From a virus, in the IMG/VR virus record IMGVR_UViG_3300027896_000002, positions 1 to 64,000 of that record: 64,000 bases of DNA; one strand, written 5' to 3'. Both the position numbers and the translations under genes were made by a program. Shown piece after piece: positions 12,461-59,737 of the stretch. Numbering within the stretch: the stretch's first letter is position 1; every line of letters starts with the position of its first letter. The notes beneath the pieces are model-generated. The model was not told where the DNA came from. It searched no databases and saw nothing but the letters and a program-made list of their open reading frames with translations.

Positions 12461-12468
12461 AGATCCTA

Positions 12469-12590
12469 ACCCGAATAGACGGGATCATCCCAATAGGGAT
12501 TAACAGGTCGGGTGAAAATAAGATTTAACAAGGATTCCACCCTGAATAGACGGAATCACCCAGGACTTAAAGGGGTTAGCAGGACAGGGG
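12469..12590 (+). ncRNA. tandem structured element (2 copies) in capsid gene leader
   Basis: Two copies of stem-AATAGACGGRATC-hairpin-TARCAGG-stem with compensatory changes (12469-12513, 12539-12590). Confidence 0.55.
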
Positions 12591-51540: not shown

Positions 51541-51574
51541 AAAAGGGCTTGAGAAATAAATCCCAAGCCCTTTT
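51541..51574 (-). terminator. rho-independent terminator (possibly bidirectional)
   Basis: AAAAGGGCTTG...CAAGCCCTTTT hairpin after 51583..52356. Confidence 0.7.
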
Positions 51575-52356: not shown

Positions 52357-52427
52357 TGTCTCCTCCTTTTTTTGTTCAAAGTGACTACCCCAGGGGGCAA
52401 AATATTTAGCATCTAACTTTTGCTTTT

Positions 52428-52640
52428 TCATCTTTCAACATTTCTCCCATTATGTTCAGAGATGCCTATAAAATTTTTATTGCGTGAATACCATTCCTTC
52501 CCATAGGTGCATTTAAGCCAGTTAATGACCGTTGGTTTTCCCCTCGGTCTCTTAGGATCTGTCCTTCGTTCTGGCATCTCTGCAAGGACTGAAATCTCAT
52601 GGGTCTTAGGGTCATAGAGCGTAATTTTATAGGTTGTCAT
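52428..52640 (-). CDS. hypothetical protein
   Basis: ORF with SD AAGGAGG. Confidence 0.7.
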   Translation of the reverse strand: MTTYKITLYDPKTHEISVLAEMPERRTDPKRPRGKPTVINWLKCTYGKEWYSRNKNFIGISEHNGRNVER

Positions 52641-52657
52641 TTTAACCTACCTCCTTT

Positions 52658-53542
52658 TCAAGCCGCCCGTTTTTGCTTGGCCATTTCTTCCATCAAGTGC
52701 CACAAGCCACGGTTGACCCGAATATTTTCGGTAATGCCAGTGATGCCAGGGACCTTTTCCTTATGGACCAAGTGGCCATTTGGGGTTGTGTGCACGGTTC
52801 TTTCAAAGCGATTTCCCTTGGTCATTTTTTCTTGGATCCGATTAAAAATGTTCCAAATGGTTGGGGCCTCATCACTGACGCGAAGGGGCTTTAAAAGAGC
52901 TGGGACATCAAAGGTTCGGTCATCAACGTGAAAATTAAAACCCTCGCTTGAGGTCTTTGAATCATCCTTGGCATATTTAAGAAGTAAAGTTGACTCGGCA
53001 AAGATGATTTGCTCAACGGGCTTGAGCTCAATTGCCTGATAGGATGAAATCTTCTTTGCAAGTTTAGGAACTTCCTCAATCACCTTATAGCTGGCTTCAA
53101 TTACTTCTTTTTGCTCTTGCCCAAGATGCATGACGTTGATCTGACCAAAGCTGCCCTCACTTACGATCAAGCCATTTAAGCAAGCCAGCTTAAAAAAGCC
53201 TGCCATGATTGAGTACCTGGTTGTCCTATCATGAGCATTAGTCAAAATTAATTCAGGAGCCAAGTCTCCAACCTTATCAAGGTAGGTGCCCTCTTGCCGA
53301 AAACGAACCATATGTTTCTGATAACCCAACCGATTTTCCTTTAAGACCCGTTGCTCTTGCGCTTTTACCGGATACCAGTTATGATCGCAAAGGCCATCAA
53401 TCACGTCCATGGTTGAATAAAACCGGTACTTAGCGCTTGCCGTAGAAATTGGCTTAGTTTGAATGATGCTTCGAAGCGCCGCTAATTGTTCAAGGGAAAT
53501 AAAACTTTTGCCATCGCCAATAGTAGTAATTCTGGTTGTCAT
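52658..53542 (-). CDS. DUF932/DUF945 family protein
   Basis: S.KY.F.ST..VI..L, Q.RV.....GYQKHMVRFR, ELILTNAHD, AGFFKLACLNGLIV, R..D....W..FN.IQE, N..LW. Confidence 0.88.
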   Translation of the reverse strand: MTTRITTIGDGKSFISLEQLAALRSIIQTKPISTASAKYRFYSTMDVIDGLCDHNWYPVKAQEQRVLKENRLGYQKHMVRFRQEGTYLDKVGDLAPELILTNAHDRTTRYSIMAGFFKLACLNGLIVSEGSFGQINVMHLGQEQKEVIEASYKVIEEVPKLAKKISSYQAIELKPVEQIIFAESTLLLKYAKDDSKTSSEGFNFHVDDRTFDVPALLKPLRVSDEAPTIWNIFNRIQEKMTKGNRFERTVHTTPNGHLVHKEKVPGITGITENIRVNRGLWHLMEEMAKQKRAA

Positions 53543-53580
53543 AGGTCTCCTCCTTTTTTAAGTTATTCTGGATGGTTTAA

Positions 53581-53937
53581 TCACCACCCATACCGTTTAA
53601 AGGGAAAGGCAAATTCATTAATTGCCCTCTGCTTCTTTTCATCCATCTTATAGTAAAGGTTAATCACTGTCAACAACATTTCCTTTCCATCTTTTCCCCA
53701 GCCCCTCCATTGAACATGGGTTTTAAGGCAATCAGCATCAGTCACTGCTTCAATTACCTCTGCCCTTGAAATAGTTTTTCTACTTCCATGGCCAATCATA
53801 GCCTCTAACCAATCAGAGCCAATTTCCTGCCATGTTGAACTCATCGCCGAGCTTAATGCCTTTACCTGCTCACTTGTTAGGCCTGTTGCCTTGACCACTT
53901 TCGCCAATTCTTTTTCATAAATTTCTTTTGACATCAT
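53581..53937 (-). CDS. hypothetical protein
   Basis: ORF with conserved GGAGGAGACC RBS. Confidence 0.75.
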   Translation of the reverse strand: MMSKEIYEKELAKVVKATGLTSEQVKALSSAMSSTWQEIGSDWLEAMIGHGSRKTISRAEVIEAVTDADCLKTHVQWRGWGKDGKEMLLTVINLYYKMDEKKQRAINEFAFPFKRYGW

Positions 53938-53966
53938 CTTGGTCTCCTCCTTTTGAATTTTATTTT

Positions 53967-54032
53967 GCACTCTTCCTCCCTTAACTTATAAAGCGCCGGC
54001 GGGCCTATCATTAGATAAGCCCACCCCAGGGA
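53967..54032 (-). ncRNA. pseudoknotted RNA motif, copy B (unrecognised)
   Basis: UCCCU-GG-[12-bp hairpin]-G-GCGCUUU-AUAAGUUA-AGGGA-GGA-AGAGUGC; covaries with the copy at 57726-57800. Confidence 0.65.
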
Positions 54033-54033
54033 C

Positions 54034-54219
54034 CTACTTCCTGATGAAGGCGCCGGTCGTTCCCTTTGCAAATTTTCTAATCGCGCTCACGACGCTGGTC
54101 AAATCCTTCGGGTCGATTCGCATCGTGCCAAGAGATGCCTTTCGGTCAGTGGTAAGAAGCATCACGCCAAGGGTCCCACCGTTCTTTTTAATGGCCTTCT
54201 TTGCTGGCTTTTTTGCCAT
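54034..54219 (-). CDS. small basic hypothetical protein
   Basis: SD AAAGGAGGTG; MAKKPAKKAIKK. Confidence 0.7.
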   Translation of the reverse strand: MAKKPAKKAIKKNGGTLGVMLLTTDRKASLGTMRIDPKDLTSVVSAIRKFAKGTTGAFIRK

Positions 54220-54261
54220 GGTCCTCACCTCCTTTCATGGAAAATTTTTACTAATAAAAAA

Positions 54262-54447
54262 TCAACGTAAGTCTATTCTCTCTTTCATTCGGCAATAAAT
54301 AGGATTCCCAGACCTATCTATAAGTTTTGGGCTTAAAATGATATGGCATTTTGGACAGGTCAAAGTCTCCCACTTTTTTATCTCCTCTCCCATTGCCATA
54401 AATTCATCTCCACATACTGTGCAATATAGCATTAAACCCTTTTCCAT
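54262..54447 (-). CDS. zinc-ribbon protein
   Basis: CTVC...CPKC; SD AAGGAG. Confidence 0.7.
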   Translation of the reverse strand: MEKGLMLYCTVCGDEFMAMGEEIKKWETLTCPKCHIILSPKLIDRSGNPIYCRMKERIDLR

Positions 54448-54464
54448 TATTTTATTCTCCTTTC

Positions 54465-55232
54465 TTAATGGCCAATTACCCGTTGACCTTGACCTGGGTT
54501 ATGGCGAAGGGCATTAGCCCTAAGGGAAACCTCGTTGGCCATTTGCTCACCTCGTCGTTGGCCCTCACTGTTGTGCCGAAACTGGTTTAACCTGTTAGCA
54601 GACCTAAGCCCCTTAAGATTTTTCATCCAATCATTTACCTCAGTCAAGGCCCGATCTAACCTAACCAAGGCGGTGGAGCCAGTAGGAGCTGCTGCGTTTC
54701 GCTCGGCATCAAACCGTTTGCTTAGACCAAGGACAAAACCATAAAGCCAAGCACTTCGAAAGCCACGAGCTTCAGTCACATCACCATTGTCGCGGCATTC
54801 GTAAAAGTACTTGACATATTCCTTCTCGGCCATCTTCTCCGCAAGCTTATACATGGTTACAAAAAGATATTCGGCAATCTCACGGTCGCTTTTATGCCCA
54901 ACTAAGCAGATATGATTTGAGCCAACGGAAATTAAGATCTTACAGAAATGGGCCTTAGCAATGATGCTGGCTAATTGCTCAGACCATTGCTGACGGGCCT
55001 TTTTTGAAGTAATTCCTTGAGTTTCAAAGTCAACCCATACCTTACAAATGGGGTCGGTATCTTCTCTCTTGTCCCAATCAACTTCAGACATAGAAAGATT
55101 GTGCTTGAGCAGCAGCTGATTAACCATTCCAGCAAAGGCCTCGGCCTCTTCTTGGCTACCAATTTTCTCACATGATTCTGCCTTTGCATGAAGCTTTCGA
55201 ATCTTGTCAATTACTTTTTCCTCGGTTGTCAT
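54465..55232 (-). CDS. DUF2786-domain protein
   Basis: KVIDKIRKL.AKAE...EEAEAF.....L..KHNL, W...LA..IA..HFC, FR..W..GF. Confidence 0.82.
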   Translation of the reverse strand: MTTEEKVIDKIRKLHAKAESCEKIGSQEEAEAFAGMVNQLLLKHNLSMSEVDWDKREDTDPICKVWVDFETQGITSKKARQQWSEQLASIIAKAHFCKILISVGSNHICLVGHKSDREIAEYLFVTMYKLAEKMAEKEYVKYFYECRDNGDVTEARGFRSAWLYGFVLGLSKRFDAERNAAAPTGSTALVRLDRALTEVNDWMKNLKGLRSANRLNQFRHNSEGQRRGEQMANEVSLRANALRHNPGQGQRVIGH

Positions 55233-55261
55233 GGTGGTCTCCTCCTTTTAGATTTTATTTT

Positions 55262-55317
55262 GTTACCTACCTGGGATTAAACCCAGGTTTCGGCCATTTA
55301 GGCCTCATCAGGGCAAC
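55262..55317 (-). ncRNA. Hammerhead ribozyme, type I (HH1)
   Basis: GUUGCC CUGAUGA GGCC-UAAAU-GGCC GAAA CCUGGG-UUUAAU-CCCAGG UA / GGUAAC; complete core with stems I-III. Confidence 0.92.
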
Positions 55318-55667
55318 TGAATTGAAATTTCAAGGCCATCTTTAAAACTTTGAATTGTGAGTGGAATTTCCTTAATCCGTAAAATCTTTGAAAGGTTTTT
55401 TCCTTGCAGGTCAGTCAATGGTTCTTTAAAATACAGGTGCAATAAAGCCCGTTTATAGGAAAAAGGCTTTGTTTCCATGAAGGAATTGTTAAAATACATC
55501 TGAGACCTGACAACCTCAATGCCCCTTCGTTTAAGGATTGGAAACACTGTTGTTATATGCTTATCAGCCAAGTCACTTAAAAGCTTGCAGTTTTTTTCTG
55601 CTAAATCTGCCTCAAGTAAAAGTTCTTGAACTTCCATCTCAATTCGTTCCTTATTAATCTTTTCCAT
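55308..55667 (-). CDS. hypothetical protein
   Basis: Conserved RBS; the stop codon lies inside the HH1 core. Confidence 0.75.
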   Translation of the reverse strand: MEKINKERIEMEVQELLLEADLAEKNCKLLSDLADKHITTVFPILKRRGIEVVRSQMYFNNSFMETKPFSYKRALLHLYFKEPLTDLQGKNLSKILRIKEIPLTIQSFKDGLEISIQLP

Positions 55668-55697
55668 GGTCTCCTCCTTTTGAATTTTATTTTATAG

Positions 55698-55883
55698 TTA
55701 ACAATCAAATTTACTTTCAACCTTAAACTTCTTGATCGCTTCATTCAGATAACTTTTCTCAATCTGCTTTCCCGCTGAAACAAGAATCGCATAATCGAGG
55801 TCACATCCCTTTAATGTGATCATCAGGGCTAATTTTAATTGGGCTGGCGTCATTTGCATTATGATGCTTTCTAAATTTTCCAT
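55698..55883 (-). CDS. hypothetical protein
   Basis: Conserved RBS. Confidence 0.7.
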   Translation of the reverse strand: MENLESIIMQMTPAQLKLALMITLKGCDLDYAILVSAGKQIEKSYLNEAIKKFKVESKFDC

Positions 55884-55909
55884 AGTCTCCTCCTTTTGAA
55901 TTTTATTTT

Positions 55910-55965
55910 ACCACCGACCCGAGATTAATCTCGGGTTTCGACCATTGAGGTCTCATCAGGATGAT
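55910..55965 (-). ncRNA. Hammerhead ribozyme, type I (HH2)
   Basis: AUCAUC CUGAUGA GACC-UCAAU-GGUC GAAA CCCGAG-AUUAAU-CUCGGG UC / GGUGGU. Confidence 0.92.
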
Positions 55966-56342
55966 TTTCTTGCCTGAAATGTTTCTCCTCTTTTCTCGAT
56001 GATTGCCCCTAATTGAAAAGCCGCTGCCATATCTATTAGATCTTGTACCTCCTCTTTAGCAAGTTTAACGGCTCTGGCAACACTCATCTTCCAATTTTTA
56101 ATGTAATGATCTCGAAGTTGAAAGAGTAAAGTTTCTTCAAGAACTGGAAGCTCTACCACTTTCATCGTGGTGGTAGATTTATTGCACTCAACTCCCGCCA
56201 TTGACCGTCGGCATCCACAGCTTCCATCCACTGTCTCACCATCACACTCAAAGGAAAAATGAACAATCTCACCTTCCGGTACCCAGCAAAAATCATTTTT
56301 CCTTTGCCCCTGCATCTCTTTCGTTGCCACGATAATCTTCAT
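55956..56342 (-). CDS. conserved Cys-motif hypothetical protein
   Basis: QGQR.NDFCW..EGE, CD......CGCRRSMAG; the stop codon lies inside the HH2 core. Confidence 0.75.
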   Translation of the reverse strand: MKIIVATKEMQGQRKNDFCWVPEGEIVHFSFECDGETVDGSCGCRRSMAGVECNKSTTTMKVVELPVLEETLLFQLRDHYIKNWKMSVARAVKLAKEEVQDLIDMAAAFQLGAIIEKRGETFQARKSS

Positions 56343-56383
56343 AATCAGTCTCCTCCGTTTTGCCCATTGGGCGGTTAAAGGTT

Positions 56384-56530
56384 TTAATAAATTTCCCTGG
56401 CATTGATCGAATCAACTGTGATCTTTGCTGGCCCATTTTCCAAGGTCATTTTAATATACTCTTCGATCTGCCCGTCACCATCCATCTCACCATCATTGAC
56501 TTCAATCTCCATTATAACTTTTATCTTCAT
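56384..56530 (-). CDS. small hypothetical protein (48 aa)
   Basis: Conserved RBS; MKIKVIMEIEVNDGEMDGDGQIEEYIKMTLENGPAKITVDSINAREIY. Confidence 0.65.
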   Translation of the reverse strand: MKIKVIMEIEVNDGEMDGDGQIEEYIKMTLENGPAKITVDSINAREIY

Positions 56531-56556
56531 GGTCTCCTCCTTTTTAATTTTATTCT

Positions 56557-56611
56557 ATCATCGACCCGAGTTAAACTCGGGTTTCGACCATTTAGGTCTC
56601 ATCAGGATGAT
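56557..56611 (-). ncRNA. Hammerhead ribozyme, type I (HH3)
   Basis: AUCAUC CUGAUGA GACC-UAAAU-GGUC GAAA CCCGAG-UUUAA-CUCGGG UC / GAUGAU. Confidence 0.93.
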
Positions 56612-56627
56612 TTTTATATTTTTCTCA

Positions 56628-56906
56628 TTAGATTACTCTTACGATAGAAAGATAAGGTGTCGTATCCTGCTCCAATTTCCATCGCATCCTATCAACTATC
56701 AAATTAAGATCCATTCTGTGCGTGAAGTCTTGCTCCTCACCGTGCTCAAAATTAATGGTCACGATGAACTCCGTCTTCTCCTCGTCCTGCATATTGCTGT
56801 GAGAAGAAGAGACTCTCGACTTTGGAAAAAAAGATGCTGCCACTCTATAAAGACTGTTCATCTCGTTCCATGCTACTGCTCTTTTTTCCTGAATTTTTTT
56901 ATTCAT
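56628..56906 (-). CDS. hypothetical protein
   Basis: Conserved RBS. Confidence 0.7.
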   Translation of the reverse strand: MNKKIQEKRAVAWNEMNSLYRVAASFFPKSRVSSSHSNMQDEEKTEFIVTINFEHGEEQDFTHRMDLNLIVDRMRWKLEQDTTPYLSIVRVI

Positions 56907-56941
56907 TTTGGTCTCCTCCTTTTAAAATTTGAATTTAAAAT

Positions 56942-57136
56942 TTAAGGCAATACAACAATTTCCAAAGCACCAGGAAAATTTCTTTTTATCTCTTTTAGAG
57001 CACTGGTAAAAAATCCATATCTCATTTCTCTAAAAGCCTGGCCGTTAGAATATTTAATATTAAACCACCATTGACCTTTTCCTTTTGGTTCTTTTCCATG
57101 GCTAAAAAAATATTCATTCTTATTTATTGCTTTCAT
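56942..57136 (-). CDS. hypothetical protein
   Basis: Conserved RBS; Y..SHGK.PKG.G.W.F motif. Confidence 0.72.
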   Translation of the reverse strand: MKAINKNEYFFSHGKEPKGKGQWWFNIKYSNGQAFREMRYGFFTSALKEIKRNFPGALEIVVLP

Positions 57137-57164
57137 CTTGGTCTCCTCCTTTTAAATTTTTTAG

Positions 57165-57407
57165 TTAGAACCTGCAGTTAACTTCAAAGTAAGAATCCTT
57201 TGGCCATGCTCGCCATATTTTCCAAGCATTGATAATCTCGACATGGGGAAATATTTTTTTAATTTGTTCAGCATAACTCTCAGCTGTTTTCCCAAAGGTA
57301 TAAAAGAATCCAAACCTAAAACTTATCGTCTTATCCTTTTTGAAGATAATTTTATCAGGATAGATATTGGTCCCATCAATCATCTCTTTGAATTGTCTTT
57401 TTGTCAT
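57165..57407 (-). CDS. hypothetical protein
   Basis: Conserved RBS. Confidence 0.72.
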   Translation of the reverse strand: MTKRQFKEMIDGTNIYPDKIIFKKDKTISFRFGFFYTFGKTAESYAEQIKKIFPHVEIINAWKIWRAWPKDSYFEVNCRF

Positions 57408-57422
57408 GGTCTCCTCCTTTTT

Positions 57423-57551
57423 TTACTTAATCCCTTTAACAAGGATTTGAAGTGCGACCGGCTCTAAAGAAAATAGAACCTTAATCGCTGTTAGAAATCC
57501 AATGATCTTCCAAATTCCAAAAAAATTTTTCTTTGTGATGTTGCCTTTCAT
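57423..57551 (-). CDS. small hypothetical protein (42 aa)
   Basis: Conserved RBS; MKGNITKKNFFGIWKIIGFLTAIKVLFSLEPVALQILVKGIK. Confidence 0.6.
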   Translation of the reverse strand: MKGNITKKNFFGIWKIIGFLTAIKVLFSLEPVALQILVKGIK

Positions 57552-57565
57552 TTTGGTCTCCTCCT

Positions 57566-57700
57566 TTATTTTTTGATAAGGCTTTTATGAATAATTTTTC
57601 CAGTAGAAAGTACAAGAAAACCTCTACCATAACCATCTTCCTTTGTTGCTTTTCTAATAATAAAAATTTCCTTATTTCTAAACGTGTAAACTTTTCTCAT
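57566..57700 (-). CDS. small hypothetical protein (44 aa), first gene of early operon
   Basis: Conserved RBS; MRKVYTFRNKEIFIIRKATKEDGYGRGFLVLSTGKIIHKSLIKK. Confidence 0.62.
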   Translation of the reverse strand: MRKVYTFRNKEIFIIRKATKEDGYGRGFLVLSTGKIIHKSLIKK

Positions 57701-57725
57701 GGTCTCCTCCTTTTAAATTTTAATC

Positions 57726-57800
57726 GCGGCTTGCAACCCTTAACTTTTTTACCGCCGGCATGATCTATATCTTAATGATATAAACCACGCCACAGGGTCA
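57726..57800 (-). ncRNA. pseudoknotted RNA motif, copy A (unrecognised)
   Basis: UGACCCU-GU-[15-bp hairpin]-G-GCGGU-AAAAAAGUUA-AGGGUUG-CAA-GCCGC. Confidence 0.65.
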
Positions 57801-58012
57801 TTTTGTCTTTTCACTCTTCAGTTGTCAAGGTTGGTGGCGGATTATTCTAATGATAGGCCTGAAAAATGTTTTTCAGATCCTACGTTCGAAACGCCTTGGT
57901 TATTGTCAAAAACTTCTGCCTTTGCCAATGAGGCTTGGTCCCCGGCTCGCTTGTTGCCTTTGTTTCTCGCCTCGCTTGCCTCATGATATTTATTAATCTT
58001 AACCATGACCTA

Positions 58013-58068: not shown

Positions 58069-58188
58069 TTTCTAAGTTATTGAAATCATTAGGCTTTTTA
58101 ATCATTAATTTTTTTTAATTTTAACCATTTTTCTGTCTTAAAAAAGCTTCATGGTACATGTTTTTCTAAGTTATTGAAATTATTAGGC
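58069..58188. repeat. 26-bp direct repeat (2 copies)
   Basis: TTTCTAAGTTATTGAAATYATTAGGC at 58069-58094 and 58163-58188. Confidence 0.8.
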
Positions 58189-58279
58189 CTTTTGAGTTAG
58201 AAACTAACACATTTCTCCTGGATAATATTATTTTTTTCAATATTCAATTCCATGATGATCTGGACATCATTATAGAGCT

Positions 58280-59737
58280 TTAAACATAAAACCCACGGTC
58301 TGTGGTAGGGGTCACTAAAAATAAATTCTGTTTTGCCCGAGTCATGCCAACGTAGAAAACACGATTCTCAGCATCTGAATTTTTTTCCAAATGCTCTTCA
58401 GTTGAACGAGTTAAATCAGTCAATAAAACTACGTGATCAGCCTCACCACCCTTAACTCCATGAATAGTGTCAAGATGCACTTTTGGAATGCCAGTTAACT
58501 TACGTCCTTTTTTTAAAATTGTAAGGTAATAGGAACGCTTATCGGCTGTCAATCCAGTCATGGCATCATGCCAAATACCTGGATCGAAGGAGACCAATCC
58601 CGACAACCGATAAGCGCCCGGTATTAAATCTCGTGGTTTACCAAGATACTGTAAAATTTCTTCGCCCTTTATCTCATCTGTCATTCCGCCCTTTCGCAAG
58701 CGTTCATATTCTTGGATAATTTGTACTTCATCAGGGTTGACTGACACAAATGATCCTCGCATGGTATAAGAAATTCCCTGAGTTATACAAACCTCTTGTA
58801 GGATAGATAAAAAACAAACGTTGCGGGCAAGCAGCAACCAACTACCAGGTAAAGTTAAATCAATTTGATCAAGAGAAGAGCAGCGAACTACCCGGCCTAA
58901 ATCATCACGAGGCTGTAATTTTTTCTCGTACCGCTTATCAATTCTTTTAGTCAAGGCCATGGCCTCATTAAAGATCATTTTAGGAAGACGATAGGAGTAT
59001 GGCAAAATCTCACGCTCATTTTCTCCTAACTCTAAGAAGCGATTGATATCAGCCCCAGACCATTCATAAATTGCCTGGTCATCATCACCAGCGATATAAA
59101 GTCGCTTGGCCTTGGCAAAGGCAATATCAACTACCTGCCACTGCAAGGGCGTTAAGTCTTGGGCCTCGTCAATGATCGTGGCCTCAACCCCAATGTCACC
59201 CCCATCTTTTACAAAATTCTGAAGCATGTCGGTAAAATCAATTAAGCCACGCTTTTGCTTATAGGCCCTTAGAGTTTTTGAAAAGAGCTCAACCATGTGC
59301 CATGAAAGGTCCCAATCAGTTTGATGCCAAACGTCCTTTAAATCTTGCCCAATGTTTCGAGCAAGGTTATCTATGAATAACATCTTGTCACCGTCTCGCA
59401 TTCCAGAATCATCGTCAATGATCATTTTACCAATGATTGGGATGCCAAGCAAATCGCCAATTTCCTTTAGGTGCTCAGTTCGTATCACCTGGTCTCTTTT
59501 TATTCCAAGTTGACGATAGCATAAAGAATGAAGAGTCCTAAAAAAAAGAAAATCTTTTTCCTTCAACTTGAACTTTAGGGCCGCGCGTTGACATGCCTCG
59601 TTTACGGCCTTTTTAGTAAAGGAAACAAAGGCAATCAGGTGGGGCTTTAGGCCACGTGATAGTTCCTCATCCATAACTTCTAAAAGCCTGGTAGTTTTAC
59701 CTGCCCCAGGACCTCCAAGAATCAACCTTTTATACAT
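58280..59737 (-). CDS. UvrD/Rep-like SF1 helicase
   Basis: GGPGAGKTT, SFTKKA..EA, FRTLHS, IIDEAQDL, AGDDDQAIY.W.GAD, SYRLP, TIHGVKGGEAD, FYVGMTRAK. Confidence 0.95.
   Translation of the reverse strand: MYKRLILGGPGAGKTTRLLEVMDEELSRGLKPHLIAFVSFTKKAVNEACQRAALKFKLKEKDFLFFRTLHSLCYRQLGIKRDQVIRTEHLKEIGDLLGIPIIGKMIIDDDSGMRDGDKMLFIDNLARNIGQDLKDVWHQTDWDLSWHMVELFSKTLRAYKQKRGLIDFTDMLQNFVKDGGDIGVEATIIDEAQDLTPLQWQVVDIAFAKAKRLYIAGDDDQAIYEWSGADINRFLELGENEREILPYSYRLPKMIFNEAMALTKRIDKRYEKKLQPRDDLGRVVRCSSLDQIDLTLPGSWLLLARNVCFLSILQEVCITQGISYTMRGSFVSVNPDEVQIIQEYERLRKGGMTDEIKGEEILQYLGKPRDLIPGAYRLSGLVSFDPGIWHDAMTGLTADKRSYYLTILKKGRKLTGIPKVHLDTIHGVKGGEADHVVLLTDLTRSTEEHLEKNSDAENRVFYVGMTRAKQNLFLVTPTTDRGFYV

Follow-up and report, generated by a model that had tools for sequence, protein, structure and literature searches.

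A hammerhead-associated phage RNA motif without an assigned Rfam family is a genuine structured RNA present in two covarying copies

Within the phage record IMGVR_UViG_3300027896_000002, whose first 64,000 nucleotides (nt) form the stretch of DNA analysed here (the window), two regions of the minus strand, copy A and copy B, are copies of one structured RNA element that is strand-specific and covaries between them. This hammerhead-associated phage RNA motif has no assigned Rfam family and is a genuine structured RNA. It belongs to an array of small orphan genes on the minus strand (~58,000 to 52,300), where it stands in for a hammerhead ribozyme at two of the five structured gene junctions, in the same register. 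Regarding its role, we tentatively propose that both copies could serve as a cis-acting, non-catalytic structured leader module of the early polycistronic mRNA, a model that we regard as possible rather than probable.

Each copy is built from three helices. A 5' tail supplies the first strand of helix P1, and a 2-nt linker (GU in copy A, GG in copy B) leads into a long hairpin, P2; a single G (57756 in copy A, 53997 in copy B) then separates P2 from P3, whose loop holds the second strand of P1 and which is closed, beyond a short joiner, by its own 3' strand. A first-pass annotation, made from the letters of the sequence, had assigned both copies to the minus strand, and this placement was borne out (copy A, 57798-57726; copy B, 54032-53967), as were the 2-nt linker, the long hairpin, and the single G before P3 when the sequence of both copies was read. 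The 3-nt joiner given in the same annotation holds for copy B (GGA) and fails for copy A, where the joiner spans 5 nt (UGCAA). The components are listed below, with R1 denoting the covariance model built from copy A alone, R2 the two-copy model, RBS a ribosome-binding site, and ORF an open reading frame.

57726-57798, minus strand: copy A, whole element, 73 nt; R1 and R2 scores of 107.9 and 95.4 bits; fold z -3.6.
57794-57798, minus strand: copy A, P1 5' strand ACCCU; partner AGGGU at 57736-57740; the outer pair covaries with copy B.
57757-57791, minus strand: copy A, P2 hairpin of 15 bp (16 with a U-G pair), loop AUUAA, three G-U pairs; -20.9 kcal/mol alone.
57741-57755, minus strand: copy A, P3 5' strand GCGGU (57751-57755) and linker AAAAAAGUUA (57741-57750), which contains the invariant AAGUUA.
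57726-57740, minus strand: copy A, P1 3' strand AGGGU (57736-57740), joiner UGCAA, and P3 3' strand GCCGC (57726-57730).
57701-57725, minus strand: copy A, 15-nt A/U-rich spacer and RBS GGAGGAGACC, before the ATG at 57698-57700 (44-aa ORF); predicted unpaired.
53967-54032, minus strand: copy B, whole element, 66 nt; R1 score 33.7 bits (E 3.5e-6), R2 score 79.3 bits.
54028-54032, minus strand: copy B, P1 5' strand UCCCU; partner AGGGA at 53977-53981.
53998-54025, minus strand: copy B, P2 hairpin of 12 bp, loop UAAU, two U-G pairs; -22.8 kcal/mol alone.
53982-53996, minus strand: copy B, P3 5' strand GCGCUUU (53990-53996) and linker AUAAGUUA (53982-53989).
53967-53981, minus strand: copy B, P1 3' strand AGGGA (53977-53981), joiner GGA, and P3 3' strand AGAGUGC (53967-53973).
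53941-53966, minus strand: copy B, 16-nt A/U-rich spacer and RBS GGAGGAGACC, before the ATG at 53935-53937 (118-aa ORF).

In copy A, P3 encloses a loop of 20 nt. When the copies are aligned, no gap is needed in the 3' half (31 nt) or in the 5' tail (7 nt), the difference in length being confined to the hairpin. Despite helices of unequal length (15+5 versus 12+7 bp), the P2 and P3 stack amounts to 19-21 bp in both copies, near two helical turns.

The fold is supported by covariance, comparison with controls, and predicted stability. R1, built from copy A alone, recovered copy B with a score of 33.7 bits (E=3.5e-6) and otherwise matched, within the window, the complementary strand of the copy A hairpin only (19.8 bits, with non-standard pairs), and the two-copy model matched copies A and B only in the whole 74-kb genome. 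In the model-fitted alignment, each of the 25 proposed base pairs forms in copy A and in copy B (47 of 47 pair cells standard). Both partners have changed in five pairs (three in P2, one in P3, and one in P1) and one partner in four more through G-U pairing, in agreement with the first-pass view that all three helices keep pairing despite sequence change. Shifting the 3' partners by 1-3 columns left 32-50% of the cells paired and produced nearly no compensatory changes, and 13 of 500 shuffles matched the observed pairing values, which is about the best attainable from two sequences. P2 and P3 also emerged from minimum-free-energy folding of each copy (z -2.5 to -4.5 relative to shuffled sequences), the corresponding fold of copy B alone consisting of P1 and P2; P2 by itself contributes -21 to -23 kcal/mol, to which P3 adds ~5 and P1 3-5. 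The element is an RNA read from the minus strand because its wobble pairs turn into A-C mismatches on the plus strand, as the earlier claim that G-U pairs fix the strand had held.

Conservation follows the proposed architecture closely. Invariant between the copies are AAGUUAAGGG, GCC-G-GCG, and CCCUG.GG, which include the AAGUUA block, already singled out as a conserved linker at first pass, and the AGGG/CCCU pairing blocks; 11 of the remaining 17 positions of the 3' half differ, and the similarity has its precise limits at the outer P1 pair and the last P3 pair. These results leave P2 and P3 well supported and the P1 pseudoknot helix plausible, since P1 draws its support from conserved complementarity and one covarying pair (A-U in copy A, U-A in copy B). 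The CCCU/AGGG helix that had been described is present in both copies and extends to 5 bp if the covarying outer pair is counted, but its significance is moderately above chance only: random genomic 8-mers pair with the loop by at least 5 Watson-Crick bp in 7% of trials, and we place its significance at roughly p 0.02-0.07.

Several additional interpretations of the same letters were considered and set aside. A kissing interaction between the P2 loop and GUUAA could form four A/U-rich pairs in both copies, but the loop lies 12-15 bp from the linker; the hairpin lacks a following U tract and is not an intrinsic terminator; GCCGGC occurs seven times in the genome, the number expected by chance, which argues against a palindrome acting at the DNA level; and a third candidate copy at 58449-58458 is located within the helicase gene. 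Two coding features also overlap the element. In copy A, a 9-codon mini-ORF (AUG ACC CUG UGG CGU GGU UUA UAU CAU UAA, 57771-57800, minus) overlaps both the 5' strand of P1 and the first half of P2, ending in and just beyond the P2 loop, and it is probably a coincidence because no Shine-Dalgarno sequence precedes it. In copy B, the P3 loop contains GGGAGG, followed 5 nt on by a GUG in frame with the 118-aa gene (53968-53980; ORF 53581-53970), which could be an alternative start inside the element.

Comparison with Rfam placed the element in none of the described families that were compared. At the gathering thresholds of Rfam 15, the whole window gave no match on either copy, and at E<=10 the 4.7-kb region and each copy alone yielded noise only (mir-101, GP_knot2 at 12 bits, PyrR210, SurA). 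The comparison, RAGATH and ribozyme families included, returned no family match to either copy, in line with the earlier statement that the element fits neither hammerhead, twister, pistol, nor hepatitis delta virus (HDV) consensus, with hatchet and twister-sister likewise negative. The retroviral read-through pseudoknot GP_knot2 (RF01092), for which a model score of 80 bits is required, was rejected as a candidate: copy B alone gave a match, at 12.1 bits (E=5), and the real stop codon was out of alignment with it; stop-codon read-through was also discarded, as it would add 15 codons only.

The genomic position of the element ties it to the three hammerheads of the array, which are all type I, each with CUGAUGAG, CGAAAC, and GUC:

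56557-56611, minus strand: hammerhead 1 (type I); Hammerhead_1 33.7 bits (cut-off 34), RAGATH-1-hammerhead 45.2 bits; 16 nt before the RBS.
55911-55980, minus strand: hammerhead 2; RAGATH-1-hammerhead 28.6 bits; CUGAUGAG, CGAAAC, and GUC read directly.
55263-55342, minus strand: hammerhead 3; RAGATH-1-hammerhead 23 bits; core boxes read directly.

The hammerheads end 16-17 nt from the RBS and P3 ends 15 nt (copy A) or 16 nt (copy B) from it. The first-pass description of the copies as lying in the same slot as the hammerheads is therefore exact, the distances of 15-16 nt and 16-17 nt being measured to the same RBS cassette. Copy A heads the array, and copy B lies 1.2 kb beyond the last hammerhead, beginning 2 nt past the UAG at 54036-54034, as had been noticed earlier ("just after a stop codon"). 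The other array junctions are without structure, except for one with a simple hairpin: a plain 8-bp hairpin (GGGUGGU...ACCAUCC, 53559-53595, minus) ahead of the DUF932 gene, whose RBS is at 53553. As this hairpin occupies the same pre-RBS slot, it suggests that a structure followed by an A/U spacer and an RBS is a general design of the array. In hammerheads 2 and 3, the upstream ORFs end on the UGA of the CUGAUGAG box (55956-55965 and 55308-55317, minus; ORF ends at 55956 and 55308).

A promoter-like site adjoins copy A, assigned by consensus match only:

57800-57828, minus strand: promoter-like TTGACA-17-CAAAAT; 10 of 12 consensus matches; -10 box at 57805-57800; expected start at about G57793.

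It is the best promoter-like site of the 480-nt intergenic region. The expected start falls past the P1 5' strand and 1-2 nt before P2, leaving the P1 5' strand between the -10 box and the start; if the promoter is real, the main transcript of copy A would open with the hairpin and be unable to form P1. A leader beginning at 57793 is predicted to fold into a 5'-terminal 16-bp hairpin and P3, with spacer and RBS free (z -4.5; none of 200 shuffles folds as well). This predicted start site appears to suit a 5'-terminal protective structure, the second option of the first-pass annotation, somewhat better than a pseudoknot ribozyme.

In the leader model that we tentatively favour, the very stable P2 would adjoin P3, whose loop, bearing the invariant AAGUUAAGGG, would clamp the 5' tail through CCCU/AGGG (P1). 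The fold would lie at or close to the 5' end of the downstream mRNA segment, would shield that segment against 5'-end-dependent decay by enzymes of the RNase J or RNase E type, and would keep upstream RNA from pairing with the ribosome-binding site; fold prediction leaves the spacer and RBS unpaired. The hammerheads may reach the same end by cutting off upstream RNA, their cleavage leaving the downstream segments with a 5'-OH and the upstream segments with a structured 3' end. The first segment alone lacks a preceding hammerhead and would need other 5' protection, which could account for the location of copy A. Copy A would then protect the primary 5' end of the array, and copy B would halt decay started upstream, giving the distal genes a stability of their own. 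By analogy, a 16-bp hairpin at the predicted start would also have the geometry of known 5' stabilisers.

Several observations weigh against this model. A roadblock requires stability, not a particular sequence, and the invariant unpaired AAGUUA and the GCC-G-GCG junction are left unaccounted for amid neighbours that have changed to near saturation. If the promoter is real, the P1 5' strand falls outside the main transcript of copy A, and its conservation is unexplained. Copy B is internal and would be a 5' structure only if the RNA were cut upstream; its location is also left unexplained by the model. Lastly, promoter-like matches are not enriched in the region (14 found, 11.7 expected).

A rather unlikely alternative is that the element is recognised by a protein, which could be an endoribonuclease of phage or host origin processing the operon at this point or a translational repressor for which it serves as operator, with the invariant loop and junction forming the contact surface. 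The invariance of the unpaired AAGUUA block and of the GCC-G-GCG junction would fit such a role, as would the P2 and P3 stack of 19-21 bp. T7 early mRNA carries RNase III sites behind promoters and between genes, and the two copies are distributed in a similar manner. The 5' tail of copy B (GGUCCCU) can alternatively pair with the RBS (AGG-A-GACC), hinting at a switch; however, this pairing is absent in copy A. Moreover, P2 and P3 form a nicked stack, not a continuous hairpin of the RNase III type, and no candidate RNA-binding protein or nuclease was recognised, with none of the 10 small early proteins matching PHROG and the neighbouring genes encoding DUFs.

That the element represents a new class of self-cleaving ribozyme is an analogy that we judge unlikely. 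Most hammerhead-associated (RAGATH) motifs reportedly did not cleave when tested, which counts against it. The shared slot and register with three hammerheads nevertheless argue in its favour, and pistol, hatchet, and twister-sister were themselves discovered through co-location with hammerhead and twister ribozymes (PMC4604424). The possible pseudoknot together with about ten invariant unpaired or junction nucleotides (G, G, AAGUUA, GCC-G-GCG) is reminiscent of small ribozymes, no known family fits, and the coarse layout is held in common with hatchet (supplement of PMC12016570). On the other side, there are two copies only, in one genome, P1 depends on one covarying pair, transcription from the predicted start of copy A would leave out the P1 5' strand, and the invariant-block patterns gave nothing real among the viral contigs searched.

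A processive antiterminator resembling the put sites of phage HK022, in which the nascent double hairpin would bind the elongating host RNA polymerase and cause read-through of terminators, seems quite unlikely. Here copy B would reload the polymerase once the hammerheads had cut the tether to copy A. The put RNAs of HK022 are ~65-nt promoter-proximal double hairpins of early operons, two per phage, that act in cis (PMC8632103); the present element measures 66-73 nt, has P2 and P3 0-1 nt apart, and occurs in two copies, the first just behind a promoter-like site, with invariant junction and loop nucleotides that would be compatible with a binding surface. A terminator-like hairpin at 51541-51574, 2.4 kb past copy B and with genes beyond, is also consistent with this option. 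Nevertheless, both copies lie in one transcription direction and not behind two separate promoters, whereas put sites occur in two divergent operons; no terminator is predicted between the copies or just after them; and put is not known to have a pseudoknot or a conserved 5' tail. The likeness is one of size and shape only.

It is improbable, to about the same degree, that the element has no function of its own and is a duplicated, drifting stretch with a stable hairpin and a coincidental pseudoknot, even though only two copies exist, P1 alone is weakly significant, and no homologues were found. All five changed pairs of P2 and all three of P3 still pair, for which a rough estimate under drift is ~1e-4, and an unchanged 10-nt block stands beside positions that are ~65% diverged, with conservation bounded precisely by the 5' end of P1 and the 3' end of P3.

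Least probable by far is a metabolite-sensing riboswitch whose ligand stabilises the pseudoknot, for the loose likeness of this 5' leader, with its H-type-like pseudoknot and A-rich linker, to preQ1-I, SAM-II, and guanidine-III, which have H-type-like pseudoknot architectures, is set against the absence of any riboswitch family score at E<=10, two unrelated small orphan proteins downstream, and an RBS that lies 15-16 nt outside the fold and is predicted to be free.

The search for homologues covered IMG/VR and the loci of relatives of this phage. Among 2.9 million viral contigs of IMG/VR scanned with invariant-block patterns, the exact pattern GCCGGCG-N6-AAGTTAAGGG gave two chance matches within coding sequence, and CCCTGNGG-N20-50-AAGTTAAGGG gave 94 matches, none with a hairpin. 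The RBS cassette AAAAGGAGGAGACCA returned single-match contigs only, indicating the absence of a sister phage from IMG/VR. Regex and descriptor scans of ~5 Mb (helicase- and terminase-relative loci together with the pattern matches) revealed no credible homologue, and the two-copy model, run over ~4 Mb of those loci, produced two chance matches only, both rejected: L003 (19 bits) is without P3, and L402 (13.8 bits) lies within a 464-aa ORF. The DUF7168 protein led to no related loci, and blastn against GenBank phages found no match. The relatives searched are distant, the best helicase being 48% identical and the best large terminase 63-64%; the 49.8-kb record carrying that terminase is without the helicase, hammerheads, or early module. 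Helicase relatives of 59-88% identity exist in ENA, Logan, and JGI assemblies. For now, the family consists of two paralogous members in one genome.

The source is a 74,127-bp phage contig rated complete, from a freshwater metagenome, of which the window is the first 64 kb. The genome encodes a large terminase, a portal, an HK97-type capsid, a family A DNA polymerase, a ThyA-like enzyme, an AEP primase, and a UvrD-type helicase, and ARAGORN identified no tRNA or tmRNA genes. Cultured phages are only distantly related to it: the identity of the helicase to those of Pseudanabaena phage Pan1 and others does not exceed 37%, and the capsid protein is at most 27% identical to its nearest cultured relatives, phages of Streptomyces, Clostridium, and Rhodococcus. 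Because of these capsid relatives and the strong GGAGG sites, the host is probably Gram-positive-like, and such hosts usually possess RNase J. The phage stretch is present in one sequencing run only, a freshwater metagenome that is probably its source, and no RNA run is listed as containing it.

The array itself is organised around its ribosome sites. AAAGGAGGAGAC precedes 12 array genes (52369-57713, minus), usually behind an A/U-rich spacer; the 12 copies make up an extended and unusually uniform ribosome-site cassette, and most of them follow a spacer similar to AAAAUAAAAUUNAAAA. A minor strain in the same sequencing run (depth ~18 versus 180) joins 56548 to 57419 through 165 other letters, and since both junctions fall at RBS cassettes, this suggests an exchange of gene cassettes by recombination at the repeated RBS. 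The minor-strain contigs cover 56358-56614 and 57419-57551 only, and neither copy A nor copy B lies in them. The strong terminator-like hairpin at 51541-51574 (minus), a 14-bp stem between an A tract and a U tract, closes the gene block after copy B, and same-strand genes continue past it. Upstream of copy A, the intergenic region that separates it from the helicase gene holds a 31-nt direct repeat (58069-58099 and 58163-58193; 94% identical, 94 nt apart), which may be an operator or iteron. Elsewhere in the window, the capsid leader contains tandem pseudoknot-like units (12462-12589, plus; conserved AAUAGAC and UUARCAGG), for which Rfam at E<=10 returned noise only and which are unrelated to copies A and B.

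The interest of the element lies in its company. Folded RNAs of no known class found beside hammerheads and twisters in phage-like DNA have earlier yielded pistol, hatchet, and twister-sister. If the element cleaves, it would constitute a new ribozyme class; if it does not, it would be a natural non-cleaving counterpart of ribozyme insulators and would show how a phage sets the ends and lifetimes of segments within one long early transcript, a matter that, to our knowledge, is largely unexplored outside T7 and lambda.

Among known systems, the hammerheads of the array (type I/RAGATH-1) share with the element the strand, the slot, the 15-17-nt A/U spacer, and the RBS cassette. The copies differ from them in lacking the CUGANGA box, the GAAA box, and a three-way junction, and they are not of the permuted type either, in which these blocks are retained (PMC10085705, which defines the hammerhead blocks including the permuted types SGC, CSG, and GCS). 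Hammerheads, whether of types I-III or permuted, are defined by the CUGANGA and GAAA boxes and a UH cleavage site joined by stems I-III; the two boxes are absent from both copies, and the Rfam hammerhead models match the three true hammerheads only. We also compared the topology with dot-bracket structures published for hatchet, pistol, twister, twister-sister, HDV, and CPEB3 (supplement of PMC12016570); a 5' tail, a hairpin, and a helix into whose loop the tail pairs is unlike all of them, and the twister, twister-sister, and pistol models gave no match to the copies at E<=10.

Hatchet is the nearest in outline. Its 5-bp helix surrounds three parts, namely a short 5' strand, a variable long hairpin, and a 3' strand of 14-16 nt that includes GUUAA, and its published examples have CCUGUGG..CG and GUUAA in common with copy A (supplement of PMC12016570). 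Like the element, it was found in unclassified metagenomic DNA and discovered beside hammerhead and twister ribozymes. The conserved hatchet blocks are a CAA linker after the P1 hairpin, UGGG, and GCAG...AAA in L2 (PMC6561176), and P1 is the cleavage helix (PMC4604424, PMC6561176). In the element, CAA, UGGG, GCAG, and AAA are absent or out of register: the 5' strand reads GU or GG and not UGGG, the 3' strand reads GGCGGUAAAAAAGUUA or GGCGCUUUAUAAGUUA, and no P1 hairpin with the cleavage site is shared upstream; conversely, hatchet has no counterpart of P3. Across the genome at E<=10, the hatchet model RF02678 (gathering threshold 51 bits) had its sole match at 59607-59691 (plus) within the helicase gene (13.2 bits), and short-window scans with it gave no match on copy A or B.

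HDV-like ribozymes have the same crossing order of strands (a, b, a', b'), with the 5' strand of the first helix at the 5' edge. The element differs in lacking a P3/L3 hairpin between b and a', P1.1, and P4, and the joiner of copy B (GGA) is without a C of the catalytic type, which in HDV-like ribozymes lies in J4/2. Only 8-10 unpaired nt extend from the P3 5' strand to the P1 3' strand, leaving no room for the hairpin of the HDV-like double pseudoknot, and the HDV-type Rfam models showed no match to the copies at E<=10. The H-type pseudoknot riboswitches (preQ1-I/II/III, SAM-II/V, fluoride, guanidine-III) were equally without a match at E<=10, and the downstream genes are orphans of 44 and 118 aa.

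Exoribonuclease-resistant RNAs (xrRNAs) of flaviviruses and plant viruses fold compactly, with a pseudoknot holding the 5' end, and their role, blocking 5'-to-3' decay, is the one that our leader model would give to the element; no sequence or secondary-structure homology connects the two, and xrRNAs are not established in bacteria or phages. The 5'-terminal stem-loops that stabilise mRNAs, such as those of the ompA 5' untranslated region, the T7 phi10 leader, and the Bacillus subtilis aprE and SP82 leaders, are plain hairpins that have neither invariant loops nor a pseudoknot, and they occur once per transcript, not also internally. Their hairpin lies no more than ~4 nt from the 5' end, a position that copy A alone would share, provided that the predicted start at ~57793 is real, copy B being internal. 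With copy A, these stabilisers have in common a stable hairpin a few nucleotides from the (predicted) 5' end, an unstructured leader, and a strong RBS.

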